A stretch of 64,000 nucleotides of DNA from an uncultured Ignavibacteriales bacterium (GCA_964650395.1 CAZYRH010000001.1:6-64005); one strand, 5' to 3'; positions 10,452 through 53,655 are shown, numbered from the stretch's first letter. Numbers and translations: made by a program. Notes: generated by a model not told the origin, from the sequence alone.

Positions 10452-10992
10452 ATGGTTCACCATATTGTTATCACTGGCGCACCGGCGTCAGGTAAGACTG
10501 TGTTTCTCGAAAGGCTCAAAAAAAACCCCCGATTTCTCCGATTTTATTTTCTTTAATGAACTGGCCCGCCAACTTCTTTCTCGGAATCCGCAGTACAGAA
10601 AAAACTGGGGTGAGTTTCATGTCAAATTGTATCACCAGCAAGTGGCGTTGGAAGAGCAGGCTCACAACCGGTCCTTTATTGCCGACCGGGGAACGGTTGA
10701 TGCCTTTGCCTTTCACCCGGAAACCATGTCCAGTGTCGGAACAACTCTCGAAAGGGAATACCAAAGATACAGCGCGGTGATGCAACTGGGCACTGCGGCT
10801 GTGCTTGGAGACAGGTTCTATCAACGGGACACCATTCGAAATGAACCAGCCTCGGCTACCATTGCAATTGAACAGGCCATCACTGATGTATGGCGGGCAC
10901 ATCCACGATACTTTTTTGTCAAAGCGGAGATTGATTTCGAAAAAAAATATCGTACCTTTTTACAAATAGCGAAGAGACTGACTAGTGATTGA
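10452..10992 (+). pseudogene. P-loop ATPase (AAA_28-like) split by a +1 frameshift in an A8C5 homopolymer
   Basis: The ATG at 10452 encodes MVHHIVITGAPASGKTVFLERLKK (Walker A) and terminates at 10554. The rest of the protein continues in the +1 frame from about 10513 to 10992. Deleting one A from the run at 10518-10525 restores a single 179-aa ORF. Confidence 0.65.
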
Positions 10993-11069
10993 TGGCTGGC
11001 ATAATTAAACAAATGTGCGGATCAAACGTCATTAGTAAAGAGAATCAATCCTTTAGCGGGGAGAGAGAT

Positions 11070-13289
11070 ATGAAAACAAAATTGTTCTTCGTGATCATCG
11101 TCGTATCCGGTCTATTGGCAGGTGCTGTATCGGCTGAGTCGACATTCTTTAAGAAGTTCAAACAGGACTATGCTGCTTTGGATATGGACTTATTGAACAA
11201 CATGGGCGAGCTGGCTACGATCAAGGATTTTGTTTACCACAAAGATGTTGCCACCTTTACGTTCCGTGAAGGGACCATTCATCTGCTGCGTTATGTGGAA
11301 GGGCGGCCGACAACGGCCATATTCGTGGGGAGGGGTAATGCCAAAATAGAAGTTCCCTCGCATGTGGAACGACAGGGATTGGAGTGCGTGACCAAGGACA
11401 GTCTGGTGGATGAGGACTTTGAAGTGGCTTTCATTCGCATGGCAGACGACTTTGACCTCAAGCTCAAGGAAAAATTCACCTTTAAGCCTAAAGAGCTTTC
11501 CTGGAAAACGTTCACTATAGCCAAGCAAGCTCAGGGAGAAGTCTTTTTTAAGCCGAGGATACTTCATACTTATGATAACTACTTCCAACTAATACGATCG
11601 CTTTACGAACGTTCCAGCGACGGATATTTCTGGATTGACTTTAGCCGGTATGTATTCACGTTCGATCCCAACCGGCCTCAGCAGGTGGTAGTTGCCTACG
11701 AGCTGGGTGTTTCAGATATTGTAACCAAGGAAGCGGCGGTCTTTCAGAGAAAAGAGCTGGGCATCTATGATGACAGCCTGGTATCCGATATATCATATTC
11801 CACCACCATCATTGAAAAACACGGTAGGATCGAGATGGCCGGCTCTGACGGACTTGATATTGGGCAAGCAGAGGTTATCGTAAAGGTTTTGATAAATGCC
11901 GACAGTATGAAATTTGTGTCGTTATTTCTCCCTACCACGCTTAGTGAGGATTCGATATACCTTGATGGCCAACCGGTTGATTATTACCGAAGAAAGGACT
12001 TTGAATTCATCGGCATTATTCTGTCTGAGTATCGATACCGGGGAGATACACTACAGTCCACACTATGGTATAAGGGAAAGAATATTGACCGCTTTATGCC
12101 GTATGTTGAAAATCCGCAGGCGTGTGTTAATACTTTCACCTTTATTATCCCTAAGGGCTTCAATTACTATATGCCCGGTATGAGTAAGGTTGAACCATTG
12201 GACGACAAGAGAGACCAGTTTACGGTTTCGTCTTCTAATCTGTACAACAAATTTTATTTCCATGCCTATGCTTCAGATATTGATACTATAGCTGTGCCCT
12301 CCGATATCGGGATCACGTTGAACTTTTTGAAACAAAAGCACATTCCCAAGAGATTGCTCACCTGTTTCATTTCCGATCAGCAATTTCAAAGCTCCATTGA
12401 GGACGCGTTTAATTACATGGCCGCCCATCTTGGCGGCCCACCCAATACCTTTGTGGAGTATATCGTCCCGGAGCGGACAAGGAGCATGCCGGGGCTGATC
12501 CAGACTCCACAAACAGCTTGCGTTAACGAGGGGGCGATGGAAGCATCGGGTGGGTTTGACGTTGTTGCCGGGGTCGCTGTTGGCAAGCAGTGGTTTGGAT
12601 CGCTGTTAAGGCCGGTATCAGACCGAGAGATGTGGATTGCGGATGCTCTCCCACACTATCTGGCGCTCATGTTTCTTCAGAATCAGCGGGGGACACCATA
12701 TTACACCAACCTTCTCAGCCGCCGCGACTCGATTTTTACCCAGGCCAAACGCGACCGGGATATGCCTCTTGCGACTGGGAAGAAGGCAATGGCCTACGTT
12801 CGAGTTAACAAAGGGGTCTGGTTGCTTCATATGCTCAGGTTTTTAATGTATGATTTGGAGACGCAGTCCGAAGGGAGCTTCCTGCGATTTTTGCAGGAGT
12901 TGTCTATGACCTGCAATACCAGGCAGTTCACGAATAGAGACTTCATAGACCTTGCCGAAAAACAGTATGGCCAATCGCTGGACTGGTTCTTCAAGCAGTG
13001 GCTTTACGGACGGGGTTTCCCGGAGTACGAAGTCGAGTACAAGATCAATCAACAGGACGGTGAGTACTTTATAAATGCACAAGCGGAAACCAAAGGGGTA
13101 GACGCAAATTTCACCATGCCGGTTGTTATGCGAGTAGTGGGGGGTGATGGAGAATCAACTTATTTCAGACAGGCCATCGGTGGGTCGAAAACGGAATTTG
13201 AGCTGGGTCCGTTTGCAAGTCAACCCCAAAAGCTGGTTTTCAACGAGTTCTTTAGTGTGTTGTCAAAGGATAAGGTGAAGAAAAGATAA
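11070..13289 (+). CDS. Secreted M1-aminopeptidase-like protein lacking the zinc-binding motif
   Basis: Signal peptide MKTKLFFVIIVVSGLLAGAVSA, with GGGGAGAG upstream of the ATG at 11070. It has a GAMEN-like motif (GAMEA). The HExxH-x18-E position reads GVAVGKQWFG...WIADALPHY. Confidence 0.7.
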   Translation: MKTKLFFVIIVVSGLLAGAVSAESTFFKKFKQDYAALDMDLLNNMGELATIKDFVYHKDVATFTFREGTIHLLRYVEGRPTTAIFVGRGNAKIEVPSHVERQGLECVTKDSLVDEDFEVAFIRMADDFDLKLKEKFTFKPKELSWKTFTIAKQAQGEVFFKPRILHTYDNYFQLIRSLYERSSDGYFWIDFSRYVFTFDPNRPQQVVVAYELGVSDIVTKEAAVFQRKELGIYDDSLVSDISYSTTIIEKHGRIEMAGSDGLDIGQAEVIVKVLINADSMKFVSLFLPTTLSEDSIYLDGQPVDYYRRKDFEFIGIILSEYRYRGDTLQSTLWYKGKNIDRFMPYVENPQACVNTFTFIIPKGFNYYMPGMSKVEPLDDKRDQFTVSSSNLYNKFYFHAYASDIDTIAVPSDIGITLNFLKQKHIPKRLLTCFISDQQFQSSIEDAFNYMAAHLGGPPNTFVEYIVPERTRSMPGLIQTPQTACVNEGAMEASGGFDVVAGVAVGKQWFGSLLRPVSDREMWIADALPHYLALMFLQNQRGTPYYTNLLSRRDSIFTQAKRDRDMPLATGKKAMAYVRVNKGVWLLHMLRFLMYDLETQSEGSFLRFLQELSMTCNTRQFTNRDFIDLAEKQYGQSLDWFFKQWLYGRGFPEYEVEYKINQQDGEYFINAQAETKGVDANFTMPVVMRVVGGDGESTYFRQAIGGSKTEFELGPFASQPQKLVFNEFFSVLSKDKVKKR

Positions 13290-14495: not shown

Positions 14496-14996
14496 CTATT
14501 CCGTGGAACGGATGGTACGGATGAGCTCTCCCGGGGAAGTGATAGACATCAACTCGTCCCGGAACGATTCGTACTGAAGCATCTCGCCCAAACTTTTGAA
14601 TATCCGGAGATACAAGGTGTCATCGTAGGGAGGAGCGGCCATGATAAAGAACAAATGCGTTGGACAATTGTCTAAAGCGCCGAAGTCGTATCCCTGGGTG
14701 GAGCGGGCAAAAGCAATCATAAAGTCCTTTGCCTGCACGGACCTGATGTGCGGTATCGCAACGCCGTGTCCAATGCCGGTGGAGGCTTTCTTTTCACGGT
14801 TGATGAAGTCAAGCAGGAGCTTGTTGCTGTTGCCGATGCGAGCGCCATGTTGGAGAAGGTCGACCAATTCCAACAAAATGAGTTCCTTACTACGCTGGCG
14901 CCACTTCTCAATGGATACCCCCTCTTCGGGAGGGGCAATCTCAGTGGTCATCTCCAGTTTGACCATACTCTCGTTAAAGCAGCGTGCAAGATTCAT
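14496..14996 (-). CDS. ptsN: PTS IIA-like nitrogen regulatory protein
   Basis: PTS_EIIA_2 signature STGIGHGVAIPHIR. I chose the start at M14 of the track ORF (MNLARCF...), which gives a family-typical length of about 166 aa. Confidence 0.8.
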   Translation of the reverse strand: MNLARCFNESMVKLEMTTEIAPPEEGVSIEKWRQRSKELILLELVDLLQHGARIGNSNKLLLDFINREKKASTGIGHGVAIPHIRSVQAKDFMIAFARSTQGYDFGALDNCPTHLFFIMAAPPYDDTLYLRIFKSLGEMLQYESFRDELMSITSPGELIRTIRSTE

Positions 14997-15390
14997 ATTG
15001 ATGGTTATCGGCATCACACAGTATAAATTTTGCATGAAAATAGCTATGTTTGCTCCTGTTTGTCAATAGCCGGTCACTTGAGCCGACAATAGCATCTGAA
15101 ACGGATATGAAGTATTCCGACGATCACAGAAGGTTAACTGAAGAGATATTCTTTGACGCAGCACAGAGGGAACAATCACCATTTGTAGTTTGGCGTTGAG
15201 CTATCGTTTCGAATGGGATCAGTCTTTTGTTTCTTGTTCTGGCACTTAGATACAATCACAGTTTGAAGCAGTACGTTTACCTGCAATGTGTAGCATCCCC
15301 ATAACAACCACATGAACTTCTGCCACTACGGTTGGGAAGCTCTTAGCTTTTCAGGTCAGAAGCGATCCAGGTGTGCCTCGCCGAAGAGCT

Positions 15391-15651
15391 CTAACTGCCA
15401 GGCGACTGACTTGACTTATTGCTGCCCTCGCTTTCGGGACGTCCCTTAATAAGCAGCGCGATGGGAATCAGAACGCAGTACCCCAGCACGAGCAGAATTG
15501 GAGCTAAGGTAATCGAACCCTCTCCGAGGGTGATGTACCCGATTATTATGACCACCAGCGCCAGAGCAAAAATTAGGTAGTTCTTCTTGCCGAAGGGCCA
15601 CCTGACTTGTTCCTGGTTCGAATCAGTCGTTTTTTTTGTTTTTACTGCCAT
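15391..15651 (-). CDS. Small membrane protein (DUF3098-like)
   Basis: 86 aa. A basic N-terminus with WPFGKKNY is followed by two TM helices, which resembles the DUF3098 family common in Bacteroidota-like genomes. Confidence 0.5.
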   Translation of the reverse strand: MAVKTKKTTDSNQEQVRWPFGKKNYLIFALALVVIIIGYITLGEGSITLAPILLVLGYCVLIPIALLIKGRPESEGSNKSSQSPGS

Positions 15652-15703
15652 GATTCAACTGATCTGTATTAAAACTAAAACTTGCCTTTTGTCAAGTAAT
15701 TTT

Positions 15704-16960
15704 CTAAGTCGCCGTTTTCCCGTGGTTAATTTCCTTATACCACGGCCATAGCCCGGCCGCCCAGATAAACATCAACATTTGACGAACTTCCTCGTCGGCA
15801 AATGTGGCTTCAAAAAGGGAAGTTACAAAGAAAACAATCGAACCCAGCAGAGCCGCCAGCAAAAAGCTTTCGTCCGGTTCTCCACTCCGCTTTGTTCGCC
15901 AACCTTTCCAGAAGTAACCGATTGCCGCTACCCACATCCCTGCAAAAAAGACAGCTCCGGGAATACCTGAAAAGGCGGCAATATTAAGCAGGTCGTTGTG
16001 GGCATGGACATGTTTTCGCTTTTCGGGGATGCCCGGCCGAAGGTAGGCGGAATAAGCAGCCTTAAAATTCCCCTGTCCCACGCCAAACGCCGGGTTTTCT
16101 CCTACCACTTTGAGCGAATTTTTCCAGATGAAGACCCGGCCGCCCTCGTAGACGCCACCTAAGTCTTTATCAGTTTTACCACTGAAGCGAGTTGTTAGCC
16201 CCGGCATGATGATAACTATGGCCACTGCGAGTACTGCAATGGTGCCAAGAGAAAAGAAAAGATACCTCCGCCCGATCATCAGTCCCAGTAACACCAGAGC
16301 GATGGCCATGCCGGCTATGGCGCCTCTGCTGTAGCTCAGTACAGTGGCAATCATGCTAAGCAAGGATGAAGAAATGAAAAAGAGCCGTAGGGGTTTCGTT
16401 AGCCACTTGCTCCCTGCCAGAGCGTATCCGGCCAGGAAAAGGGAGGCGGTGCCGTAGTAGTTGCCGAAGGTAAGAGGATGAGAAAAGTTGCCATAGGCCA
16501 GGTAACCAAAATCAGAAGCTGCTTTGAGCGGGGTGGCCTTAAACCAGTGGATTCCGGTGAAGTGCTGGATTATACCGTAGATTGAAATAAGCATTACGCC
16601 AGCGGCAAAAGCGACTACCAGTTTGTTCCGGCAGCTGGGAGAGTGAAATAGGAAGACTCCAATTGGAATTACACAAAAAAGCCATTCCTCTTTTATAATC
16701 AGTGTTGACTTAAGCGGGGTAGATCCAAGCAAAGCTGACAACAACATCCAAAAGATATAGAGAGCGATAAATAGATAAAACCACTTCAATGAAGGTGGGA
16801 ACGGATTATAGCGTGACACAATGGCAATGGTAAGAAACATGATTAAGCACACGCCTAATGAGATTTGAGCGAGAGCGATGGAAAAGGCGGAGCTGAAGAT
16901 AAACAGCGCAAAAAAGTAAAACAGAGCTTGGTTGAGGGACTTGAGGCTATGATTAGTCAT
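15704..16960 (-). CDS. O-antigen ligase / Wzy_C family membrane protein
   Basis: About 10-12 TM helices, a periplasmic loop containing HAHNDLLN, and SYSRGAIAGM. The start overlaps the gmhA stop by 4 nt. Confidence 0.75.
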   Translation of the reverse strand: MTNHSLKSLNQALFYFFALFIFSSAFSIALAQISLGVCLIMFLTIAIVSRYNPFPPSLKWFYLFIALYIFWMLLSALLGSTPLKSTLIIKEEWLFCVIPIGVFLFHSPSCRNKLVVAFAAGVMLISIYGIIQHFTGIHWFKATPLKAASDFGYLAYGNFSHPLTFGNYYGTASLFLAGYALAGSKWLTKPLRLFFISSSLLSMIATVLSYSRGAIAGMAIALVLLGLMIGRRYLFFSLGTIAVLAVAIVIIMPGLTTRFSGKTDKDLGGVYEGGRVFIWKNSLKVVGENPAFGVGQGNFKAAYSAYLRPGIPEKRKHVHAHNDLLNIAAFSGIPGAVFFAGMWVAAIGYFWKGWRTKRSGEPDESFLLAALLGSIVFFVTSLFEATFADEEVRQMLMFIWAAGLWPWYKEINHGKTAT

Positions 16961-17547
16961 CGAAAGAGATCACTTTCGACTAATTCAACCAATAGATGGA
17001 TAACAAATATATGCTCTTCCTGTATCCTTTGAGTTGACGGATGAGGGATAATCAGAGCTCGGTCGACAATACCACTCAGCTTCCCTCCTTTATCGCCCAG
17101 AAGGCCGGAGGTTAAGAGCCCGAGTTCCTTTGCTGTATGTGCAGCTTTAACCAGGTTCGATGAGTTACCGGAGGTCGATATGACAAACAGCATGTCACCC
17201 TTGTTGCCAATTCCTTGAATCTGGCGGGCAAAGACGTTTTCATACCCGAAGTCGTTAGCGGCGGCTGTCATTATGGCCGGGTCTGTACAAAGAGCTATGG
17301 CAGGCAATGCCTGTCGGTTTCTGTCCGCCGTTAATCTCACGATCATCTCCCCGGAAAAGTGGCAGGCGTCGGCAGCTGAACCACCGTTGCCCGCAATCAG
17401 AATTTTGCCTCCCGAACCAATCACACCGGAAATGACGGCCGCCATCTCCAGAATCTGCTCACCAAGCCCGTCAACAACGGACTTGCGCAGGATAGCAGTT
17501 TCGCAGGCTAACTTTTTTAGTTGCGCCAACCGCTTGTCTTTCTTCAT
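16957..17547 (-). CDS. gmhA: D-sedoheptulose-7-phosphate isomerase (SIS domain)
   Basis: GNGGSAADACHFSGEM, ISTSGNSSNL and RIQEEHIFVIH match GmhA closely. Confidence 0.85.
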   Translation of the reverse strand: MKKDKRLAQLKKLACETAILRKSVVDGLGEQILEMAAVISGVIGSGGKILIAGNGGSAADACHFSGEMIVRLTADRNRQALPAIALCTDPAIMTAAANDFGYENVFARQIQGIGNKGDMLFVISTSGNSSNLVKAAHTAKELGLLTSGLLGDKGGKLSGIVDRALIIPHPSTQRIQEEHIFVIHLLVELVESDLFR

Positions 17548-18281
17548 ACAGCGACAGACTCCTTAGGATGAGTGGCTGCGGTTAGCTCGCACAGGAGAGC
17601 AAAGGTGGGATCGTTCTCGAGTCCGGTACCGACTACTATAAACGATGCCCCGGCTTCGATCCGCGCTGCACACTCTTCAGCGGTGGTCAAACCTCCTCCG
17701 ACCAGCATTGGTATATCGATATAAGAAGCCACAGCACGAATCATCTCTTCAGGCACAGGTTGTTGGGCGCCGGAACCTGCCTCCAGATAGACGATTTTCA
17801 TCCCCAGATACTGGGCAGCCAGGGCGTGGGCAGAGGCGATATCGTACTTTGTGCGAGGAATTGGATGGGTGCCTGATATGTATTGTACGGATGTCTGCAT
17901 CCCCGATTCAACAAGCATGTAGCCTGTGGGTATCGGCTCCAGGTCAAACCGTTTCACCAGCGGCGCCCCCCGAACCTGTTCGTCGATCAGGTAGTTAGGG
18001 TTTCGTCCGGATATGAGTGATGTAAACAGGATAGCATCGGCATCGGGAGTGACCTGCGCAAATGAACCGGGGAAAATGATAACCGGTAGAGGCGTGACCC
18101 CTTTTATCTGTTTCACAGCAGAGGCAAAGTTAGTGTTAAGCATAAACGATGTGCCAACTAAGATAGCATCGACGCCGCACTCTTCGGCAGCTTCGGAGAG
18201 CGAAAGATAAACCCTCTCAGTTACTCGGTCAGGGTCAATCAGAAGAAAGAACCCCCCGCCCCGCTGTTCTTTCACCATCAT
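17544..18281 (-). CDS. (Geranyl)geranylglyceryl-phosphate synthase family protein (GGGPS/PcrB)
   Basis: FLLIDPDR, YLEAGSGA and LVGGGLTT....IEAGASFIVVGT are the family motifs. I chose the ATG at 18281, which begins 7 nt after the alaS stop. The track start at 18323 would overlap alaS by 35 nt. The stop overlaps the gmhA ATG (ATGA). Confidence 0.8.
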   Translation of the reverse strand: MMVKEQRGGGFFLLIDPDRVTERVYLSLSEAAEECGVDAILVGTSFMLNTNFASAVKQIKGVTPLPVIIFPGSFAQVTPDADAILFTSLISGRNPNYLIDEQVRGAPLVKRFDLEPIPTGYMLVESGMQTSVQYISGTHPIPRTKYDIASAHALAAQYLGMKIVYLEAGSGAQQPVPEEMIRAVASYIDIPMLVGGGLTTAEECAARIEAGASFIVVGTGLENDPTFALLCELTAATHPKESVAV

Positions 18282-18288
18282 TAATCTA

Positions 18289-20982
18289 CTATAGATTAGC
18301 CCCTTTACCATTCTTCTTTTCAACCTCCTTTTTGATGATTAAGCGGGCAGCATCGAATAGCTCTTGTGGCTTCGTTCCTTGAGCCACTGATCCTTGAGCG
18401 AAAGACGACTTGCCGCCCCCACGACCGCCAAATTGCGGCAACATTTGTTTGGATAGCTTACCGACATTTATGTGCAGCTGCGTGACCGCAGAGTGACTCG
18501 CCGATGCCATATACGTGACTTTTCCATTCACCATTCCCAAACCAAACGCCACCACAGCTTCGTTGCGCGCCTTTTGGGCGTCGATCCATCCGGCCATAAC
18601 ATCGCGGTCGGTTTCTCCAAAGTCATGGGTGATGACCGAAACAGGCCCTACGGCAGATTCTTCTCCTATTGTTTGTCGAGCACCGGCGAACATTTCCGCT
18701 TTCACTTTTTTGATCTCTTTTTGTAGAGCGAGATTGGTTTCCTGTAACTGTCGGACGCCTTCAACTGCATCGGCCTCGGTTCGACCGACAATAGATGAAA
18801 CCTGTTGTTGGAATTGCTTGGCGGAAAGCATGTACTTAATCGCTTCCCGACCCGTGATCGCCTCAAGGCGCCGCACACCGGAGGCAATACCGGTCTCCAG
18901 CGTGATGAAAAACGGCCCGATCTGGTTGACATTGTCGACATGAGTGCCGCCGCACAACTCTTTAGAAAAATCTCCTACTGATACCACCCGCACAGTGTCG
19001 CCATACTTCTCACCAAACAGTGCCATCGCCCCTGAGGACATTGCTTCCTCAACAGGCATTTCTTTTTTATCTACATTGCTGCCCTTAAGAATTTGTTCGT
19101 TGACGATCTCTTCAACCGCTTGAATCTCTTCCGGCGTCATCGGCTGATGGTGCGAAAAATCGAAGCGCAGCCGATCCGGGCCAACGTACGAGCCGGACTG
19201 CCTGATATGCTCTCCCAGCACTTTCCGCAAGGCTGCGTGTGTCAGATGCGTAGCGGTGTGGTTACGCATGGTGTCCCAGCGAATAGCGTTATCTACTTTG
19301 GCTGTTACTTCCACTCCCTTTTTGATGTTGGCTATCGCCACCGTGTCACCGATAGTCCTGATGACAATCCTGTCCTTACTCAAAAACGATCCAATTACAC
19401 GCAGGCTAAAGCTGCCGTCGACTGCTACGATTTCGCCGACATCAGCGATTTGACCACCGGCCTCCACGTAGAATGGCGAGGCGGCTAAGATAACTTGTAT
19501 CTCTATTTCTCCCCCGGCAGGCATAGGAGGAATGTAGAAGTCCTGAACAAACGTGGCTACCGAGTAAGGTTTACGCCAAGGGTAATACTTGGTAGCATCT
19601 GTGCTTTCCTCTGTCTCGTCGTGTAAAGTGAAAGAACGATCGATATGCGTACCCTTGAACGCAGAACTCTGTCGGGAACGCTCTTGTTGTTCGCGAAGGG
19701 CCTCTTCGTATCCCAAACTGTCCAATGTCAAATTGTATTCCCGCGCGATAATATCAGTCAGATCGTAGGGGAAACCATAGGTATCCTGTAGCTCAAAGAC
19801 GTCCCGGCCTGGGACAATGGTTTGACCTGATGCCAGTAGTTCCTCTGCGGTTTCCCTGAACATCCTCAAGCCATTATCGAGAGTTCGGGCAAAAGTTTCT
19901 TCTTCTGCGCGAATTGCATTTTGGATATGTGTCTCCCTCTCTCTGATTTCGCTATAGGTCTGGCCCATTTCATCAACAACGAGTTCCACAAGTTTGAATA
20001 TGAAAGGCTCCTCCATCCCTAACAATCTTCCATGAAAAGCCGCGCGCCGCAGAATCCTTCGCAACACATAACCCTGCCCCTCGTTGGAAATGCCGGCCCC
20101 GTCGGCTATGGCAAACGTAAGCGCCCGCACATGATCGGCAATGATGTTATGTGAAGCAGGATTGTCTTTGTAATTAGATTTGGTGATGTCAGAGATAGCC
20201 TCGATGATGCTCTTGAAAATGTCTATCTTGAAAATGTCTGTCTCGTAGCTGCAATCGACGCCTTGCACGACGGCAGCCAGACGCTCCAAGCCAGCACCGG
20301 TGTCGATAGACGGTTTGGGTAAGTCGATGACTTTGCCGTCCGGTTGCTGGTCATACTGCATGAAGACTAAGTTCCAAATCTCGACAAAGCGATCCGTATC
20401 GCCATTGATAACATCATTCGGCCCAGTTCCAAACTTCTCACCTCGGTCAAAATGAATCTCCGAACATGGTCCACAGGGGCCGGTGTCGCCCATAGCCCAG
20501 TAGTTGTCTTTCTTTCCGAAACGCAGGATGCTGCCTTTCTTTTTGAGTGGCGACGCCACCTTCTCCCAGAGCGTGAAGGCTTCATCATCCTCTTCGTATA
20601 CGGTGGCGTAAAGTCGGTCAGTCGGCAGCGCCAGCACTTTGGTCAGCCATTCCCAGGCATAATAAATGGCCTGCTCTTTGAAGTAATCCCCGAACGAGAA
20701 ATTGCCCAGCATCTCAAAAAAGGTGTGATGGCGGGCGGTAAAGCCGACATTATCGAGGTCGTTGTGCTTACCTCCGGCGCGGATGCACTTCTGGACACTG
20801 GCCGCCCGCTTGTACTCCACCCTGCGCTGGCCGGTAAAAACGTCTTTGAACTGGTTCATGCCGGCGTTGGTGAACAACAGCGTCGGATCGTCAAACGGAA
20901 TAACCGGTGAAGAAGGGACAATGCGGTGGTCGTTTTTCTTGAAATAGTCTAAAAAAGACTGTCTGATATCGGCTGTTTTAAT
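18289..20982 (-). CDS. alaS: Alanine--tRNA ligase (apparent ATT start)
   Basis: FTNAGMNQFK, HHTFFEMLGNFSFGDYFK, GPCGPCSEIH, the editing motifs HTATHL and CGGTHV, and a C-terminal DHHA1-like region. The conserved N-terminus (I)KTADIRQSFLDYFKKNDHRIVPSS... lies upstream of the track's TTG start. Confidence 0.9.
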   Translation of the reverse strand: MKTADIRQSFLDYFKKNDHRIVPSSPVIPFDDPTLLFTNAGMNQFKDVFTGQRRVEYKRAASVQKCIRAGGKHNDLDNVGFTARHHTFFEMLGNFSFGDYFKEQAIYYAWEWLTKVLALPTDRLYATVYEEDDEAFTLWEKVASPLKKKGSILRFGKKDNYWAMGDTGPCGPCSEIHFDRGEKFGTGPNDVINGDTDRFVEIWNLVFMQYDQQPDGKVIDLPKPSIDTGAGLERLAAVVQGVDCSYETDIFKIDIFKSIIEAISDITKSNYKDNPASHNIIADHVRALTFAIADGAGISNEGQGYVLRRILRRAAFHGRLLGMEEPFIFKLVELVVDEMGQTYSEIRERETHIQNAIRAEEETFARTLDNGLRMFRETAEELLASGQTIVPGRDVFELQDTYGFPYDLTDIIAREYNLTLDSLGYEEALREQQERSRQSSAFKGTHIDRSFTLHDETEESTDATKYYPWRKPYSVATFVQDFYIPPMPAGGEIEIQVILAASPFYVEAGGQIADVGEIVAVDGSFSLRVIGSFLSKDRIVIRTIGDTVAIANIKKGVEVTAKVDNAIRWDTMRNHTATHLTHAALRKVLGEHIRQSGSYVGPDRLRFDFSHHQPMTPEEIQAVEEIVNEQILKGSNVDKKEMPVEEAMSSGAMALFGEKYGDTVRVVSVGDFSKELCGGTHVDNVNQIGPFFITLETGIASGVRRLEAITGREAIKYMLSAKQFQQQVSSIVGRTEADAVEGVRQLQETNLALQKEIKKVKAEMFAGARQTIGEESAVGPVSVITHDFGETDRDVMAGWIDAQKARNEAVVAFGLGMVNGKVTYMASASHSAVTQLHINVGKLSKQMLPQFGGRGGGKSSFAQGSVAQGTKPQELFDAARLIIKKEVEKKNGKGANL

Positions 20983-21631
20983 CTTTCGTTACCTCATCTT
21001 GCAGTTTCTGAAGTTGCTCAAATGCCGCTCTGGCTGCCTCATAACCAAACCCGCGGCGAGCGAGATAATTATATGACTTTCGTCGAGCTACTTCAAGTTC
21101 AAATTGACTGAATTCAGCCCATCGGTTCTCCAGAGCACTAACAGCCAGCTCACTTTCGTCCTTCCCTGACAGTACCTCCTCGACAGTTTGATCTGCGAGG
21201 GAACGACTTATCATCTTCCGTTGAAGGTAGCCTGTCAAGTAGGCCCTTCCGCTCGGGCGGCGCTCCAACAGGTTCTTAGCCAAGGTATGGGCGTAACGAG
21301 CGTCGTCCAGCACACCCCGGTCTTTGTATTTTTTGATTACGTGTAGTATTACGTCGGGAGTGAAATGTTTTTTTACCAGCTTGGCTTTGAGCTCACCAAT
21401 TGAGTGCTCGCGGAGAGCAAGAAGCCGAACCGTCTCTCGGTCACAGCGGAACAGTTCCGCCTCGGATTTCAGCTTCTCAAGCTGGGGAGTCGTTATCACA
21501 ATCCCCTCTTTGAGCCGGTGCTTGTGCGCAGCATCTTCAGGTAGAACTACCGGCGAGTCCAGAGTGGAAACTGTCACCGACACTTCTGAAGCAGTGCGGT
21601 TGAGCCGGAGTATTTTGATTATTTCGTCCAT
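20978..21631 (-). CDS. recX: Recombination regulator RecX
   Basis: 217 aa built from three-helix repeats (RSGRAYLTGYLQRKMI, RRKSYNYLARRGFGYEAARAAFE). The recX-alaS order matches the classic recA-recX-alaS locus. Confidence 0.75.
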   Translation of the reverse strand: MDEIIKILRLNRTASEVSVTVSTLDSPVVLPEDAAHKHRLKEGIVITTPQLEKLKSEAELFRCDRETVRLLALREHSIGELKAKLVKKHFTPDVILHVIKKYKDRGVLDDARYAHTLAKNLLERRPSGRAYLTGYLQRKMISRSLADQTVEEVLSGKDESELAVSALENRWAEFSQFELEVARRKSYNYLARRGFGYEAARAAFEQLQKLQDEVTKD

Positions 21632-21946
21632 CAGTCAAGCGGCTGTTATCTTCAGCATCAATGCTGGAGCGTTAAGGCCTTATGTTGTTTAGATATTAAG
21701 CTGCTTTCTTGCATGAAAAAAGCTAAAAACGACATTTTCACCAACTTCTATATTGACTTGTTGTTTTAGTTTTATTATTCTTACTATTCGTTAGATGATG
21801 TTAGTAACTTGTTATTATTTTGTAGGTTGATCTATTGAAAAATAAACTTATTTTCTATCATGCTGATATGTATACAGTAACAAAAGAGGAATATTATAAC
21901 TGTTTCATGTCAAGTAGCTGGCATTCTCTGTCAGCAGGGAGCGGTT

Positions 21947-22807
21947 ATGGAGCTTGATCTACAAGGGAACATCGAACTATTTACGGTGCCGGAAGTATTT
22001 CAATTGATAGCTTCGGGGCGCAAATCGGGAACTCTGGGGATTCAACGAGATGAGTCCATTGTCATGGTCTATTTCAAGGAGGGCAACATTACCTATGGCT
22101 ACGGCCCCCGCGAGACATTTCACATAGGACAGTTATTGAAGGAACGGGGAGTTATTGCGGCGGAACAGCTCGAAGAGGCGGTCAATATCCAGGCCAAGAC
22201 AGAAAATTCCAGGCGCTTGGGCGATATACTCGTGTCACGGCATTTTATAGATCGGGCTGACCTGGAGGCCGTTGTTAAAAAGCAGGTAGAGCAGCTTTTG
22301 TATTCACTTTTAAGCTGGCAAAGCGGATCATTTAAGTTCTACGAAGGCCAGTTTCCTACTGAAGAGGAAATCACCGTCAATCTCTCGGCAGAAAACGTAA
22401 TTCTCGAAGGGCTGCGGCGTATAGACGAGATGAACATGGTGAAGGAAACGTTGCCTGATCTTGATGCCGTGTATACAATTTCTGCATCGCAAGGAGGACG
22501 CTCCCGTGCTGTTACCCTGCAGGCCGATGAATGGAATATCATGGCCCTGGTGGATGCGCATCGGACAGTAAATGAGATTTGCACACTGAGCCCAGTTGAC
22601 CGCGATGACACGCTGAAGAAACTTGCTCAGCTCAAGCTGGCCGGTATTATAACCAAAACTAAAAAAAAGGAGAGACCGCCCTCATCTGATCTTGAAAAGA
22701 TGGTGGACCGTCTGGCTAACTTATTCGAGGACTACCTGACGGAAAAGACGGCTAATCGCCCTGTGCACCGCAAAATCACAAAAACATACGTGGAGAGTGT
22801 TGATTGA
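21947..22807 (+). CDS. DUF4388 domain protein with MshEN/T2SSE_N-like domain
   Basis: The N-terminus LFTVPEVFQLIASGRKSGTLGIQ...VYFKEGNITYG is DUF4388-like. It is followed by GQLLKERGVIAAEQLEEAV..Q......RLGDILV, which is like the N-terminal domain of a T2SS E protein. Confidence 0.6.
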   Translation: MELDLQGNIELFTVPEVFQLIASGRKSGTLGIQRDESIVMVYFKEGNITYGYGPRETFHIGQLLKERGVIAAEQLEEAVNIQAKTENSRRLGDILVSRHFIDRADLEAVVKKQVEQLLYSLLSWQSGSFKFYEGQFPTEEEITVNLSAENVILEGLRRIDEMNMVKETLPDLDAVYTISASQGGRSRAVTLQADEWNIMALVDAHRTVNEICTLSPVDRDDTLKKLAQLKLAGIITKTKKKERPPSSDLEKMVDRLANLFEDYLTEKTANRPVHRKITKTYVESVD

Positions 22808-32517: not shown

Positions 32518-35500
32518 TTATTTTAAAAGAATCATCTTTCTGGTTTCAGTGAAGTCAGCCGCTTCGAGACGGTAGAAATACACGCCGGAAGCAGCTTGCA
32601 CTCCGTCTTCGGTTCTCCCGTTCCATTCGAGGGTGATGGTTCCAGCCTCGCTTGAACCGCGGTACTCACGTACCAAACCGCCGGAAATATTGTAAATGTT
32701 CAGCGTCCACCCGGTCGATTGAGGCAGAGAGAAACTGATAGTTGTAGTCGGATTGAAGGGATTAGGATAATTTTGACTCAACACAAAGCCGGTAGGTATC
32801 TGAGAAACTTTGCCGGAGACCATGTATGGCCGACCTTGATAATCGACAATTTCAGCATGGGTCAGGTTCAATTGGCCGTTACCTCGGTAGGGAATCTCCA
32901 CCAGTCTGTTAGTACCGGCGGGAATCCTGTTTGTTCCTATGTTATAGATAAGCACCTTCAATTGACCTTCTTCTATGCCGTACATCAAATCCATTTCTTC
33001 CGCACCGGGGGCAAGTCGTGGTTCGTCAATAGCAAGGTTGTCATTGATGTCGTATACGAAAAGAGCAGCTCCGATGTCACTTACCGCATGAGAAGTGATT
33101 GAGATAACATCGCTATCATAGTCTGTTGATAGAGAAAGCTCTTCGTCATACGGGGTTAGTTTGGGTATTGGGTCGGCATCTCCGATAATGACCCTGATCA
33201 AATATACCATGTCGGCCACGCTCAAGGTCAGGCCGTCAGCGTTAATATCGGTGGCTGCAATTTGTCCGGCCAGATTAACCCTGAAAACGCTCAGGCCGTA
33301 AATGAAGTAGTTAGTGAACAGCACGGCATCGGCAATTTCGTAAGGAATGCCATTCAGGTTCACGTCCCCGCGCAAATCGAGAGACTCAGGCGGAGTAACA
33401 CAAATACCGCCATTGATGAATTCGATACAGCGGATTGGCTTCGGTTTGCCTACGCCGCCGCCCTCAACACATATATCGGGTGCTCCGAGGCCGTAAGAAC
33501 GTAAAGACTCAGGGAAATTAACGTCATCCTGCTCATCCCAGATTACTGTCCCTTCCATGTTGAAGATTCGAAGGTCTACGTATAGATCGTCGCCTGTTAC
33601 GTTTGAGAAGGTATTGTCCCCGCAGTCGTACCAAATAAAGCTTATCGGGAGGAACCAGCCCCCGAGGTTCTGGTCATTGGATACATAGAACTGCATCTCG
33701 ATAAAAAGACCGTCCGGCGACAGGGATGAATCGGGGGGATGGTGGGCGCCATTGTTTATGTCGGCAATTCCGATAAATCGGACCAGTCCGATCAAGGCTG
33801 AGTCACGGTAGGTGAAGTACTCCCAGCTTTCTATATCCGTACAGCTATCAGTAGCTCCAAGGAACGTCAAGCCGGGGACATCGTATTTTAGCAAAATGTC
33901 AAAGCCGCCAATAGTATTATCAGTCTCAATGAACATGTCGACTTCTTTGGTTACTCCAACCGGAACGCTCTCACCGCCGTCAATAGACAGCCTTATGCAC
34001 ACGTCGCTAATTTCTATTGTGGTGAAGCAGGTGTCCGTGCCGCAGACACCGCTGGCGGCAATCTCAATCTCGTAGATGCCTGCTGTATCCACAGGAATGC
34101 ACACCTGACCATCGTAATAGAACCCGATGGGGCTCACATCTATCTGCGAAATGGTGCCGACCACACTAACCGGGTAACAGAGAGTATCCCGCTCAATTAA
34201 ATACAGCATTGTATCAATCTGGTTCGGGCAGGTAATCTCCGGCGGCTGGGCAAGCGTCACATCCAATGTAAACACGCATGTATCGCTGCCACATAATGCT
34301 TCAGCGATCACGGTAACATTGATGGTATCACTCTGGTCAACAGGAATGCAAACCTGGCTGGTAAGCGAATCGTAATACCCAGTGGGCGGCAAAACTGTAA
34401 CCTGGGCGTTCTCAGGCATGATTGTTACCGAATCGCATATCGTAGTGGGTCCACAAATGGTGTCGTACTGGATGTCCGAGGGACAGACGATGTTCACTGT
34501 GCCACCCGGATTGACAGTCACTACCACGGTATCAGAATCTGAGGCGCCGCATTCGTCAACGGCTGCAATGATAATATCATAAGTCTCAAAGTCCTGTGGA
34601 GTGAAACAAACCTGACTATCCTCAACAACCCCAAGAGAACTGGTGACGTTAACAATGTTAGTGTCGATGTCGGTAGCGGTGAACGGTATGCAGATCTCGC
34701 TCAGATCACAAAGTGTGAACGTGGTATCATTACCTGCATCTACATCCGGTGGGCTGTTGAACCGGGCCGTAACGGTGAATGTGCAGGTGTCGGATCCACA
34801 CGGTCCGTCGGCAATCATCGTCATTGTGGAGTCACCTGCTTCCAAAAGAGGCACGCAGACCGTCGAATCGTTTATTATATAAGCCGGTGGTGAGACACGT
34901 ACCGAATCAACGTTGGATGAAACCCCGTATTGAAAACAACGGGTATCAGGCCCGCATAACAAGACAGTCGTGTCAGATGGGCAGGTGATGGACACCTCTT
35001 CGGAAATCAGGACGTCAAAAAGAACATAGCAGGTGTCCTTATTGCATTCCGAGGTAGCGATCACCTCGATATTATAAAGGCCATTGGTATTTGCGAAGAA
35101 ACAGAGGCTGTCGTTATGCCAGGTGCCGGAACTGGTTTGAACCTGGTAATTGTCGCCCATGATATCCAGCGGCCAGAAAACCTCACCGGCATTACAAAGC
35201 CAGATATCGATTGTATCAAGCGGGCAGTCAATCTGTACGAAGTCTCCCATTTCTACAATGACACATATCTCAGCCGTATCCGCCTCACCGCAGGCATCAG
35301 TCGCAATGAGAGTTATCGTGTTGGCTCCCTCTACCGGTGTGAAGCAGACGGTATCCCCGCTGAGCGTACCAGGCGACACCTCACACGAAGTCAGATTGCC
35401 ATCCGGATCGCTGCAAATAAAACCGTCGATACAAATCTCCGACAGATCACACACAAACAGAGTGTCATCATCTGGACAAGTGGCCTCCGGCGGACTGTTG

Positions 35501-37242
35501 GTCACAACCTGCACAGCAATCTGGTCTTGACCGGTTGCTTTACAGGCATCATGAGCAGTTACATTTATTAGGTAGATTATTGTCGTATCGGGCGTGAAAC
35601 ACACTTTGCTTGTTGCCGAGTTATAGTACCCTTCACCTCCATCGACATCAACATCAACATACGAGAGGTTGCCGTCAACGTCGCTGATACCCACCGGCAA
35701 GCAGATGTCGTCTGTTTCACACGCCACAATTGTCGTATCCGGTGGTAGTATCACTAGCGGATCGCTGTTACATACTACAGTGACTGTAAAATCGCAGCTA
35801 TAGGTATTGCAGGGAGTGGTAACACGAACGGTGATATGATTTGTGTTCCCACACGCCGACCAAAAACAAACATTGCCTGTGCTGTCGGTCAGAGGATCAT
35901 ACCAGGTGTTTATTCCTTCCACCTCAATGTTTTCATGAAATCCGTGAATAACAATGGGGAAGCAAAAGGTGTCAACCAGTTGACAGGTAAAGATGTAGGT
36001 ATCATCGGGACATTCAATAGAGACTCCCTGATCCGTCTCGATAACTACGATCGCCGTATCGGCTCCCACGTTGCCGTAGCTATCGACAGCAGTGACGATG
36101 ATTTCGTAATGCCCGCTATCGTAGGGGATAAAACAAACAGAGTCGTTGTTGTAGCTGCCGCGGTTCACTATGATGGTGTCGATATCTCCATCCTGGTCGA
36201 ATATTTCGACGGGCAGACAGATTTCCTGCGGGTAACACAGATAAAGCGTAGTGTCGGGCATGCCGCTCACGACCGGTGGGCTGTTGATCACGACGTGAAT
36301 GGTCGTCTGACAGGTATCCGCCTCGCTGCAGTTATCAGTAGCAATCAGAGTAATTGTGTTGGGTCCCGGCACCGGCGTGAAGCAGACGGTGTTGCTGTTG
36401 AGCGTGCCGGGTGACGACACGCACGAGACCAAGTTGTCATCTGGATCGTTGCAAACAAAACCTGCCACACAGACGTCCGAGAGGTTACTCACAAAGAGTG
36501 TGTCGTCGCCGGGACAGGCAGCCACCGGTGCACTGTTGAGTTCAACCGTGACAATCGTGGTGTCGGCGGCTGTAATGGCACAGGTATCCACTGCATTAAG
36601 GATTAGGGTATACACGCCCGGGGTATCAGCGTAAAAACAGAACTGGTTAGTAGCGCTGTGGTAGCTGCCGTACTCGGTCCAGACACTATCAATATCAAAG
36701 TCGAGGTCGTCAGCGTGGGCAGGAAAACAGAGGTTCTCCGGGTGGCACAGAAGAATGGAGAAATCTTCGGCCATATTCACATAGGGGGGTTGGTTCAAAA
36801 CAACCGTTATTCTTACCGTATCCCAATTGCAGGCTGGTGAATCAGGTGCTGGCTCGTCTCCGTTGGTGCTGCTGATCCCGTCAACAGTGTAACCAAACAT
36901 GTAGGTAGTCGAATCCACCTCGATAGGCGTGAAACAGGTCTGGCCCGAGGTGTCGGTCAGCATCTCGAACTGACCTGGCCCTTCCACTTGAGTAATAAGC
37001 AGCGAATCACCACCAGAATTCACGGCAACGACATCAAAACAGATCTGGTCAACTTCACAAAGATAAATGGTGGAATCGTAGCTAAGGACGTGAGGTGGAG
37101 GACATGATGTTGAATCACCCCCATAGTCAGTTGATGAATCCCCCGGATAGGACGCCTCTTTCCCAGAGGCTGCGAAAGTCTGCATTAAAGCAAAGAGGAT
37201 AAACCCTATTGCCCAGATATAGGTATGTCTAAAGCTTTTCAT
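32518..37242 (-). CDS. Giant T9SS-sorted surface protein: about 12 Cys-rich Ig-like repeats, a cohesin-like module, a dockerin-like module and a T9SS C-terminal domain
   Basis: The ATG at 37242 has GGGAGG upstream and opens a signal peptide (MKSFRHTYIWAIGFILFALMQTFAAS). About 12 tandem units of about 86 aa span 34009-37110. The cohesin-like block is at about 33500-34005 (GGFDILLKYDVPGLTFLGA). Dockerin-like EF-hand pairs are at about 33175-33385 (DVNLNGIPYEIADAVLF and DINADGLTLSVADMVYL). The CTD is at 32521-32795 (NYPNPFNP...GVYFYRLEA...KMILLK). Confidence 0.85.
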   Translation of the reverse strand: MKSFRHTYIWAIGFILFALMQTFAASGKEASYPGDSSTDYGGDSTSCPPPHVLSYDSTIYLCEVDQICFDVVAVNSGGDSLLITQVEGPGQFEMLTDTSGQTCFTPIEVDSTTYMFGYTVDGISSTNGDEPAPDSPACNWDTVRITVVLNQPPYVNMAEDFSILLCHPENLCFPAHADDLDFDIDSVWTEYGSYHSATNQFCFYADTPGVYTLILNAVDTCAITAADTTIVTVELNSAPVAACPGDDTLFVSNLSDVCVAGFVCNDPDDNLVSCVSSPGTLNSNTVCFTPVPGPNTITLIATDNCSEADTCQTTIHVVINSPPVVSGMPDTTLYLCYPQEICLPVEIFDQDGDIDTIIVNRGSYNNDSVCFIPYDSGHYEIIVTAVDSYGNVGADTAIVVIETDQGVSIECPDDTYIFTCQLVDTFCFPIVIHGFHENIEVEGINTWYDPLTDSTGNVCFWSACGNTNHITVRVTTPCNTYSCDFTVTVVCNSDPLVILPPDTTIVACETDDICLPVGISDVDGNLSYVDVDVDGGEGYYNSATSKVCFTPDTTIIYLINVTAHDACKATGQDQIAVQVVTNSPPEATCPDDDTLFVCDLSEICIDGFICSDPDGNLTSCEVSPGTLSGDTVCFTPVEGANTITLIATDACGEADTAEICVIVEMGDFVQIDCPLDTIDIWLCNAGEVFWPLDIMGDNYQVQTSSGTWHNDSLCFFANTNGLYNIEVIATSECNKDTCYVLFDVLISEEVSITCPSDTTVLLCGPDTRCFQYGVSSNVDSVRVSPPAYIINDSTVCVPLLEAGDSTMTMIADGPCGSDTCTFTVTARFNSPPDVDAGNDTTFTLCDLSEICIPFTATDIDTNIVNVTSSLGVVEDSQVCFTPQDFETYDIIIAAVDECGASDSDTVVVTVNPGGTVNIVCPSDIQYDTICGPTTICDSVTIMPENAQVTVLPPTGYYDSLTSQVCIPVDQSDTINVTVIAEALCGSDTCVFTLDVTLAQPPEITCPNQIDTMLYLIERDTLCYPVSVVGTISQIDVSPIGFYYDGQVCIPVDTAGIYEIEIAASGVCGTDTCFTTIEISDVCIRLSIDGGESVPVGVTKEVDMFIETDNTIGGFDILLKYDVPGLTFLGATDSCTDIESWEYFTYRDSALIGLVRFIGIADINNGAHHPPDSSLSPDGLFIEMQFYVSNDQNLGGWFLPISFIWYDCGDNTFSNVTGDDLYVDLRIFNMEGTVIWDEQDDVNFPESLRSYGLGAPDICVEGGGVGKPKPIRCIEFINGGICVTPPESLDLRGDVNLNGIPYEIADAVLFTNYFIYGLSVFRVNLAGQIAATDINADGLTLSVADMVYLIRVIIGDADPIPKLTPYDEELSLSTDYDSDVISITSHAVSDIGAALFVYDINDNLAIDEPRLAPGAEEMDLMYGIEEGQLKVLIYNIGTNRIPAGTNRLVEIPYRGNGQLNLTHAEIVDYQGRPYMVSGKVSQIPTGFVLSQNYPNPFNPTTTISFSLPQSTGWTLNIYNISGGLVREYRGSSEAGTITLEWNGRTEDGVQAASGVYFYRLEAADFTETRKMILLK

Positions 37243-37739
37243 CTTTCCTCCCAGTGAGGGATGTCGGACCTCAGGCGTGAAAACTACGCTCCAAGCCCTC
37301 ATTAAGAACCTCAGTTTTCCATACATTTATTTTGAAAGAGGCTACAGCTTCCCCCTTAGGCGCAAACTTTGCCTCCGTCAAGCCACCTTCCAACTTCGGA
37401 GATGTGATGTAATAAGCTTCTGTAGTACTTTGGTACTCTTCTTTAATCATATTAATATACTATTTCCGTTACATAAGTCAAGACTTAAACCTCTGAGAAA
37501 CCTCAGATGCAAGAATCAGGCCAACAAGCCAACTTATTGATTCGGTGGAGGTTACAGGCTAATTTGGACGAAATCTGCATATAGCTGTCTATTTTGTGAA
37601 GACAGATAATCAATTTGTGCGTTATATTATATATAGTCGCAAATCTACAGGCTGGAACGGGCCAGTGATAAGGGCAGCTTTTGAGGCTCAGTTCCGGTGG
37701 AAGGGGAGATAAGATTGAGTCGTGCCTAAGGAAAGTTGC

Positions 37740-49590: not shown

Positions 49591-49621
49591 TGTCGCTTTC
49601 CTCGCTTTCGTTTTGCAACTC

Positions 49622-53425: not shown

Positions 53426-53604
53426 GTTTACACCTCCTGTGCATTTTGTATTCTGGTTGAAAATATACTTCTCCAGAGATCATTTCAAGCAGTTTAAAAA
53501 CCACAAGTGATGTACTCATTTTCAAGTGGTGTGCGGTATGCCATCCCAAATGAAACATATGCTTCTTCGAGCTTGTATGGCAATTGGTAGCGTAATGCCA
53601 CAAC

Positions 53605-53634
53605 ACAAAAAAGCGCCCTCGATCTGGGGCGCTT
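53605..53634 (-). terminator. Rho-independent terminator of the rplS operon
   Basis: On the minus strand it reads AGCGCCC-cagatcga-GGGCGCT followed by TTTTT. It lies 20 nt after the rplS stop. Confidence 0.7.
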
Positions 53635-53655
53635 TCCTGTAAGTAGTCGATTTGA

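Follow-up and report, generated by a model that had tools for sequence, protein, structure and literature searches.

A bacterial group II GGGPS gene in a conserved, apparently inherited operon with alaS, a putative gmhA and a WaaL-like gene in Zixibacteria

We examined a gene for geranylgeranylglyceryl phosphate synthase (GGGPS) and its neighbors in a 64,000-nt stretch of DNA (GCA_964650395.1, CAZYRH010000001.1:6-64005), which we refer to as the window. The gene belongs to a chain at 15391-21631, in which all genes lie on the minus strand and follow one another in the order of transcription as recX, alaS, GGGPS, a GmhA-type isomerase gene of the SIS family, a gene for a WaaL-like membrane protein of the Wzy_C family, and a gene for a small DUF3098 protein. 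In the reading that we favor, at a probability of roughly 0.55, this chain is an inherited, co-expressed operon of housekeeping and envelope genes, which would be kept together for the sake of their co-expression and not because they contribute to one product. The genes of the block do not adjoin by chance, because their overlapping junctions have been kept over deep divergence while the flanks were reshuffled. Adjacency by itself is nonetheless weak evidence for a shared product, because the linkage of alaS, a gene without a plausible part in lipid or glycan pathways, to GGGPS is as tight and as widespread as that of the SIS gene. The initial annotation of this region had proposed that the ether-linked product of GGGPS may be an anchor or carrier for a surface glycoconjugate; that proposal was drawn from the adjacency of the genes and is weakened by the alaS control.

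Results

Conservation of the block within Zixibacteria

A scan of a genome collection, taking one genome per species, yielded 80 GGGPS loci with 56-80% identity to the window GGGPS, the majority titled Zixibacteria and the others carrying different or generic names. Gene order in these loci was read by tblastn with the window proteins, and the order recX-alaS-GGGPS-SIS-Wzy_C-DUF3098 is found in essentially every sufficiently long contig. In the majority of the loci, recX still precedes alaS. The gap between alaS and GGGPS has a median of 3 nt and does not exceed 30 nt in 62 of 75. Of 78 loci, 70 have GGGPS and SIS overlapping by 4 nt and 75 have Wzy_C following SIS, with a spacing of 0 nt or less in 66 of these 75 and of exactly -4 in 42. 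Most of the related loci also have the DUF3098 gene 3' of Wzy_C; the genes past it (EIIA, BrkB) are not conserved across the 80. The block thus described persists down to 56% identity in GGGPS and 31% in Wzy_C, with outer flanks that have been reshuffled many times. The linkage of GGGPS, gmhA and ligase genes, on whose presence in relatives the initial annotation had made its proposal depend, is therefore a feature of essentially every related genome.

Departures from this order are seen at the Wzy_C position, where one locus (L055) has no Wzy_C match following SIS and two deep-branching Zixibacteria (L056, L061) have outer-membrane beta-barrel genes instead. In a 9.6-kb contig that is identical to the window region (L001), the gene order is unchanged.

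The window comes from a Zixibacterium, to judge by its named GGGPS homologues, which are from Candidatus Zixibacteria. Many metagenome-assembled genomes (MAGs) titled "uncultured Ignavibacteriales/Ignavibacteriaceae bacterium" (L002, L007, L011, L013, L015, L020 and others), all binchicken co-assemblies, carry the Zixibacteria-type locus with full synteny and with GGGPS at 56-80% identity, and their taxonomic labels look unreliable.

Recurrence of the core outside the phylum

More distant relatives were sampled twice, as nine contigs whose GGGPS has 45-53% identity to the window protein and as 80 further loci from a metagenome scan, whose GGGPS has 42-65% identity to an Ignavibacteria representative. 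Individual loci range from GGGPS-SIS in an Ignavibacteriaceae contig (L085), alaS-x-GGGPS-SIS (L088) and recA-recX-alaS-GGGPS-SIS...DUF3098 in an outgroup where the DUF3098 gene comes after SIS (L086), through alaS-RNaseT-GGGPS (L084), geranylgeranyl reductase (GGR)-GGGPS (L083, L090) and GGGPS-NTP_transferase (L082), to no linkage in L089 and in the Chitinophagia locus L087.

For a census of neighbors, the open reading frames (ORFs) adjoining GGGPS in both sets were pooled and annotated with Pfam. Downstream, the 73 ORFs include SIS_2 36 times, CpsB/PHP phosphatase 10 times, XerC/D four times, PfkB three times, and NTP_transferase and Wzy_C once each; the 74 ORFs upstream include about 32 alaS, 12 GcvH and five GGR. 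Lineages were approximated by clustering the GGGPS sequences at 62% identity, which left 39 clusters informative downstream and 38 upstream. By the automatic count, SIS lies directly 3' of GGGPS in 10 of the 39 clusters; this becomes 11 with L088, which the count missed, and 14 if one inserted gene is allowed, that gene being a CpsB-type phosphatase or an IS200-like transposase. The corresponding figure for alaS directly 5' of GGGPS is 16 of 38. The linkage to Wzy_C is confined to Zixibacteria, and Wzy_C is absent at the locus outside the phylum. Other neighbors found in different lineages are GcvH, XerC/D, purD, HD and rho. Judged from these sequences, the alaS-GGGPS-gmhA core seems to have been inherited from an ancestor in common with other Fibrobacteres-Chlorobi-Bacteroidetes (FCB)-type lineages, and the WaaL-like gene, like its position, is particular to Zixibacteria.

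Several of the non-Zixibacterial neighborhoods have features of their own. The CpsB/CapC-type PHP phosphatase (L118:5741-6559, L151:5756-6505 and eight further loci) is the second-commonest gene directly 3' of GGGPS, in some loci standing ahead of SIS, and might encode a phosphatase for geranylgeranylglyceryl phosphate (GGGP) or for heptose bisphosphate. One lineage has alaS-GGGPS followed by a PfkB-family sugar kinase (L123:1911-2807, L132, L137), and in L082 (855-1100) an NTP_transferase, a sugar-1-phosphate nucleotidyltransferase, begins 7 nt 3' of GGGPS. Together with GmhA, the PfkB kinase and NTP_transferase represent enzyme classes of nucleotide-heptose pathways. GGR is directly 5' of GGGPS in at least three lineages (L083:3829-4998; L090:6806-8029, where the genes overlap; L116, L142, L144), which fits saturated isoprenoid ether lipids, and hence a conventional ether-lipid role, in those lineages. 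An IS200-like Y1 transposase recognized by Pfam separates GGGPS from SIS in L131 (5759-6451), with a homologue at the same position in L129 (2129-2776). Searching by name for a cultured organism with the GGGPS-SIS pair gave MAGs only.

Junctions and gene starts in the window

The genes of the chain are listed in Table 1. As the initial annotation had described, the GGGPS stop overlaps the SIS ATG in an ATGA at 17544-17547 (in GTATGAAG), the SIS stop overlaps the Wzy_C ATG in the same manner at 16957-16960 (in CGATGACT), and these genes lie directly 3' of recX-alaS. About 40% of same-strand neighbor pairs in this genome overlap by their ORF coordinates, several by exactly 4 nt (10989/10992, 22804/22807). 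Because overlaps are so frequent throughout, an ATGA junction in this one genome is unremarkable; what is remarkable is its retention in 70 of the 78 related loci. Since the genes overlap and terminator-like sites are lacking, we infer that they are co-transcribed and translationally coupled. When 14900-22000 was scanned for promoter and terminator consensus sequences, the counts did not exceed those for shuffled sequence and no signal inside the chain stood above that expectation; the transcription unit is not defined by that scan. The spacer before the DUF3098 gene (15652-15703) contains TTGACA with TTAATA/TAATAC about 17 nt on, which may be a separate promoter and is absent from the consensus-scan list.

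We revise the start of GGGPS, which the initial annotation had placed at 18281. The ATG at 18311 is probably the true start, because homologues, including a database protein of 100% identity, are 255 aa long and because a GGAGG precedes 18311; with this start, the gene would overlap the alaS stop by 23 nt. The start of alaS also appears to lie further upstream than listed. The listed ORF is without about 31 conserved N-terminal residues, with the TIGR00344 match beginning at profile position 32, and an N-terminus reading K-I-K-T-A-D-I-R-Q-S-F-L-D-Y-F is found in frame 5' of the first ATG/GTG/TTG, where it aligns with M-K-A-T-D-V-R-Q-A-F of L018. An ATT at 20982-20980 is in frame with alaS and overlaps the recX stop (GATTAA), and L018 has ATG at that position; alaS thus seems to start at this non-canonical codon. 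If this start is real, the entire chain from recX to Wzy_C would be coupled by overlaps. The residues K-I-K-T are also present at the alaS N-terminus in L002 and L033.

Table 1. Genes of the chain, in order of transcription.
Gene	Product	Coordinates	Strand	Length (aa)	Basis and remarks
recX	RecX	20978-21631	-		Pfam RecX_HTH1/2/3; NCBIfam RecX models match below cut-offs; first gene of chain
alaS	Alanine--tRNA ligase	18289-20982; listed ORF 18289-20877 from TTG	-		TIGR00344, 806 bits (cut-off 457)
GGGPS	GGGPS, group II (IIb-like)	17544-18311; longest ORF 17544-18323	-	255	PcrB family
SIS	GmhA-type SIS isomerase (putative sedoheptulose-7-phosphate isomerase)	16957-17547	-	196	SIS_2, 8.3e-20
Wzy_C	WaaL-like Wzy_C membrane protein	15704-16960	-	418	Wzy_C (Pfam)
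DUF3098	Small two-helix membrane protein	15391-15651	-	86	52 nt 3' of Wzy_C

The GGGPS is a predicted group II enzyme

The window GGGPS matches Pfam PcrB (PF01884) at 3.2e-38 (131.9 bits, cut-off 23.9) and clears the NCBIfam models NF003198 (281 > 247) and TIGR01769 GGGP (202.9 > 161.55). Its scores are far under the cut-offs for group I, with 25.7 for the NF003197 model of PcrB/heptaprenylglyceryl phosphate (HepGP) synthase (cut-off 260), 38.5 for TIGR04146 and 21.6 for TIGR04147. A search of the PDB ranks the F. johnsoniae enzyme (FjGGGPS, 4jej) first at 1.8e-57 and that of M. thermautotrophicus (MtGGGPS, 4mm1) next; the best matches are all of group II, including 6jo3 and 6nke, and no group I chain is found at E <= 1e-3. 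We rejected a PcrB or other group I identity on these two grounds, the model scores and the lack of a group I structure. The motifs FLLIDPDR, YLEAGSGA and VGGGL, by which the protein had initially been recognized, are all present in the ORF at 17544-18323.

The functional residues are intact. In MtGGGPS, an aspartate binds Mg, a Tyr/Tyr/Glu triad binds and polarizes glycerol-1-phosphate (G1P), and helix alpha3' carries the limiter for C20 chains (PMC9385802). Window D26 aligns to the Mg-binding D25 of MtGGGPS, S55 to S54, and Y131, Y175 and E177 to the triad Y134, Y178 and E180; D26 and all three triad residues are invariant across 20 GGGPS orthologues. In an ungapped stretch, V87 aligns to the chain-length limiter, which is V86 in MtGGGPS and I90 in FjGGGPS and for which the orthologue consensus is Ile. 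FjGGGPS (Peterhoff et al. 2014, via PMC9385802) is the closest solved relative, a TIM-barrel protein of the PcrB family with about 50% identity over 230 residues; the two share the Mg-binding Asp, the Y/Y/E triad and the YLEAGSGA phosphate loop, and the limiter, V87 here and I90 there, predicts a C20 donor. Model scores, structure ranking and residues thus agree in placing the protein in group II, a placement that the initial annotation had left to be made, and it is a bona fide GGGPS and not, as was considered there, an unrelated TIM-barrel enzyme without polyprenyl-binding residues. It is a credible C20-specific enzyme, predicted to convert geranylgeranyl diphosphate (GGPP) and G1P to GGGP.

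Bacillus PcrB, the group Ib heptaprenylglyceryl phosphate synthase, is likewise bacterial and of the same superfamily, and what it makes is a minor ether lipid, not one of the bulk membrane lipids, and of unknown function. It differs in that its chain-length ruler lies on another helix and gives C35 specificity, and the window protein scores below the PcrB/HepGP cut-off.

Among representatives of GGGPS clusters at 50% identity, P0174 and P0263 have a 4'-phosphopantetheinyl transferase (ACPS) domain fused N-terminally, P0224 is a GGGPS-deaminase fusion, and a fusion to a DAO fragment also occurs. None of the fusions among these representatives joins GGGPS to SIS or sugar enzymes, and the fusions may be gene-calling artefacts.

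The SIS protein resembles phosphoheptose isomerases

The initial annotation had called the SIS gene gmhA, a name that stands only in part. The NCBIfam gmhA models are the best for this protein, yet each match is below its equivalog cut-off (TIGR00441, 172.7 < 209.45; NF010546, 172.8 < 276; NF001628, 144.9 < 265). Its closest solved relatives are phosphoheptose isomerases, headed in a PDB search by B. pseudomallei GmhA (2xbl/2x3y; 1.6e-41, residues 35-195, ~45% identity). With that enzyme it shares the SIS_2 fold and identical zinc and catalytic residues, the His/Glu/Gln/His set being found as the H..E of GNGGSAADACHFSGEM and the Q..H....H of RIQEEHIFVIH, as well as the STSGNS motif, whose S-T-S-G substrate loop aligns identically. 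The window protein differs from B. pseudomallei GmhA in falling below the equivalog cut-offs and in being coupled to GGGPS. In L085, L086 and L088, too, the SIS protein linked to GGGPS retains the STSG loop together with the His/Glu/Gln/His residues. What we take to be the E. coli GmhA sequence aligns with the window protein at the zinc-catalytic set and the loop, and E. coli DiaA presumably is without the catalytic Glu and the last His of GmhA. A DiaA identity was rejected, since the DiaA model scores 116.8 where 352 is required, GmhA structures outrank those of DiaA, and the GmhA Glu and His are present. We therefore describe the protein as a putative sedoheptulose-7-phosphate isomerase.

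No genes for a heptose kinase, phosphatase, nucleotidyltransferase or heptosyltransferase were seen in the 64-kb window. In E. coli, gmhA likewise lies away from the waa cluster for lipopolysaccharide (LPS), so that a gmhA in a non-LPS context is not unusual.

The WaaL-like and DUF3098 proteins

The Wzy_C protein matches PF04932 at 1.2e-23 (84 bits, cut-off 31.7). A profile of 34 orthologues searched against the PDB has 7tpg/7tpj as its sole match (5e-21), in which the C-terminal two-thirds alone aligns. The 7tpg chain is named a cell-surface polysaccharide polymerase/ligase by its depositors, and we take 7tpg/7tpj to be WaaL of Cupriavidus metallidurans. The RGA, R..IW and HAHND motifs of the window protein align to identical residues of 7tpg, so that the two share the Wzy_C domain with its aligned Arg and His-x-His-Asn-Asp motifs, and R275, H321 and D323 are invariant among the orthologues. 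The protein is therefore WaaL-like. The family also holds polymerases and protein O-oligosaccharyltransferases, from which a ligase is not distinguishable by sequence, and sequence likewise does not show whether the glycan would be passed to lipid A-core, to a protein or to some other lipid.

The window DUF3098 protein, at 23.6 bits, is slightly under the cut-off of 25, and 26 of 27 orthologues match DUF3098, the best at 9.4e-07. The highly conserved core of this small protein reads WPFG.KNY...GSITLAPILLVLGYCVLIP.

The rest of the window

The other likely-real ORFs of at least 150 aa in the window are housekeeping genes, including SMC, FtsY, Ffh, TrmD, RimM, RlmN, Lgt, NadE and IspG, plus cargo of the type IX secretion system (T9SS). 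We searched for further ether-lipid genes in the 64-kb window and the 9.6-kb contig L001, and neither the roughly 50 likely-real window ORFs of at least 150 aa nor the contig includes an Fe-ADH/G1P dehydrogenase (G1PDH), a UbiA-type digeranylgeranylglyceryl phosphate synthase (DGGGPS) or CarS. Scans of the window for tRNAs and Rfam families gave no matches.

The proteins encoded at 32518-37326, 37722-40991 and 48994-49647 end in T9SS sorting domains (Por_Secre_tail/FlgD_ig), and two of the three are very large (1602 and 1089 aa). Such C-terminal domains, as predicted here, imply that this Zixibacterium has an outer membrane bearing a T9SS. In Bacteroidota, T9SS cargo is attached to anionic LPS, which gives the nearby WaaL-like ligase some interest. 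Long ORFs without a Pfam match at E <= 0.001 are found at 10989-13289 (766 aa), which overlaps an AAA_28-like gene by 4 nt, and at 49622-50764 (380 aa), 51215-53425 (736 aa) and 53415-53918 (167 aa).

Discussion

Because alaS is linked to GGGPS as strongly as gmhA is, inherited operon structure and co-expression are favored over a shared pathway as the explanation for this locus. With substrates assigned by homology, the soluble group II GGGPS would ether-link GGPP to glycerol phosphate, giving GGGP in the first committed step toward isoprenoid glycerol-ether lipids, and later steps such as the UbiA-type DGGGPS would be encoded elsewhere. The GmhA-type enzyme would convert sedoheptulose-7-phosphate to D-glycero-D-manno-heptose-7-phosphate for nucleotide-heptose, and hence for the LPS core or another glycan, and the WaaL-like protein would move an undecaprenyl-diphosphate-linked glycan to its acceptor on the outer side of the inner membrane. 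Coupling of the genes would give them joint, probably constitutive, expression from the promoter region of recX/alaS.

A number of observations weigh against this reading. The GGGPS-SIS pair is kept without alaS in 12 of the 14 informative loci of an Ignavibacteria-type cluster and in 9 of the 11 of a GcvH-GGGPS-SIS cluster, and its survival there suggests selection on the pair itself. Enzymes acting on sugar phosphates or nucleotide sugars adjoin GGGPS elsewhere (PfkB kinase in three loci, NTP_transferase in one, CpsB/PHP phosphatase in 10), and in a Zixibacteria-like metagenomic contig (L135:5001-6997), GGGPS abuts Wzy_C with no SIS between them and with a tblastn match distance of 0. An ordinary membrane-lipid role for GGGP is, moreover, itself an assumption, since the function of the products of bacterial GGGPS is unknown (PMC7888582). 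The same observations are the support for an alternative in which the genes do serve one product: GGGP or a derivative of it would anchor, accept or carry a heptose-containing surface glycoconjugate, with GmhA supplying the heptose and, in Zixibacteria, the WaaL-like enzyme attaching the glycan to the ether lipid in place of lipid A-core or in addition to it. Chemical precedent is provided by pneumococcal TacL, a member of the Wzy_C family that ligates a polymer onto a glycolipid anchor. Also in its favor are the retention of the 4-nt GGGPS/SIS overlap across Zixibacteria, the recurrence of the pair in some 11-14 of 39 clusters outside the phylum, the membership of the PfkB, NTP_transferase and PHP-phosphatase neighbors in other enzyme classes of nucleotide-heptose synthesis, and the lack of G1PDH in most FCB phyla (PMC6431249), which leaves a bulk-lipid role unproven. 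We nevertheless consider a shared product unlikely. The linkage of alaS is equal to that of SIS; the cluster and the genes adjoining it include no glycosyltransferase, no flippase and no initiating phosphoglycosyl transferase; Wzy_C is absent outside Zixibacteria and is replaced by beta-barrel genes in L056 and L061; GGR 5' of GGGPS in other lineages fits a conventional saturated ether lipid; and the linkage is missing in the one genome examined from Chitinophagia, relatives of the characterized Flavobacterium enzyme. More doubtful still is the proposal in its full extent, that GGGP is a dedicated anchor or carrier of such a glycoconjugate, and not a bulk lipid, in Zixibacteria and several FCB-type lineages alike, with ligation by the WaaL-like enzyme in Zixibacteria.

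The pairing could instead reflect the supply of substrate, if the SIS protein served GGGPS directly and not LPS, by way of a G1PDH-independent route to glycerol phosphate or of an alternative phospho-polyol or sugar acceptor, possibly in a complex. The source of G1P in FCB bacteria, most phyla of which, like Zixibacteria, are without G1PDH, has been termed enigmatic (PMC6431249, PMC7852524), and not every member of the GGGPS family uses the same acceptor, MoeO5 for instance taking 3-phosphoglycerate (PMC9385802); the very tight and conserved stop/start coupling and the subthreshold scores of the SIS protein in all gmhA equivalog models would agree with such a role. This is, however, the least probable of the alternatives, and very improbable in our estimation, given that the SIS protein keeps every catalytic and zinc residue of GmhA and is closest, at about 45% identity, to authentic phosphoheptose isomerases, that an aldose-ketose isomerase is unable to carry out the reduction of dihydroxyacetone phosphate to G1P, and that GGGPS retains the Y/Y/E triad and phosphate-binding loops of G1P-using enzymes. 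We also considered the C5-C7 end of heptose-7-phosphate, which has G1P-like stereochemistry, as a prenyl acceptor, and set it aside: O5 is the pyranose ring oxygen, and the residues of the G1P pocket are unchanged.

At the other extreme, the adjacency might have no regulatory or functional meaning, with overlapping codons making the block hard to break so that it persists by descent. The inclusion of alaS and recX in the same chain of overlaps, the frequency of overlaps across this compact genome, and the mixed neighbors of GGGPS in other lineages (GcvH, XerC/D, purD, HD, rho) are what such inertia would leave. Against it, the block survives to 56% identity in GGGPS and 31% in Wzy_C although its flanks have been reshuffled repeatedly, the GGGPS-SIS pair recurs with differing upstream partners, and insertions of IS200-like or CpsB genes between GGGPS and SIS brought no dispersal; we find pure inertia quite unlikely. 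The survival of the GGGPS-SIS pair without alaS, and the sugar-phosphate and nucleotide-sugar enzymes beside GGGPS elsewhere, give a modest signal that the pairing of GGGPS with heptose or sugar activation may exceed inertia.

The GGGPS of Zixibacteria is not new in itself. Coleman et al. 2019 reported orthologues of GGGPS and DGGGPS in all 12 FCB phyla that they surveyed, including Zixibacteria, and found G1PDH only in Fibrobacteres and Cloacimonetes (PMC6431249). A close parallel is with the Cloacimonadota described by Villanueva et al. 2021 (PMC7852524), also FCB bacteria with an archaeal-type GGGPS and no G1PDH, in which the purpose of the lipid and the source of G1P are likewise open. When placed in E. 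coli, the GGGPS and DGGGPS of Cloacimonadota were found to produce archaeal-type lipids (PMC7852524), whereas the activity of the window GGGPS is predicted only, no DGGGPS is found in the 64-kb window, and the conserved partners here are alaS, GmhA and the WaaL-like protein. The text of Villanueva et al. makes no mention of operon, neighborhood, synteny or heptose. A contrast within the FCB bacteria is given by the one Bacteroidota (Chitinophagia) genome examined, where GGGPS has no alaS, SIS or Wzy_C neighbor, whereas the window gene is in the middle of an overlap-coupled operon. In a literature coverage that was incomplete, we found no earlier description of the phylum-wide operon or of the recurrent GGGPS-GmhA pair, no work linking GGGPS with phosphoheptose isomerase, and none on LPS and O-antigen in Zixibacteria.

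Each protein of the locus is an ordinary member of a known enzyme family, encoded in what we read as an inherited operon, and nothing in it departs from known kinds of enzyme. The alaS control shows how easily a conserved adjacency can be over-read. The purpose of bacterial GGGPS enzymes has been open since their discovery, and the locus offers a testable lead: if the anchor or carrier proposal were true, it would provide the first function for a bacterial group II GGGPS.

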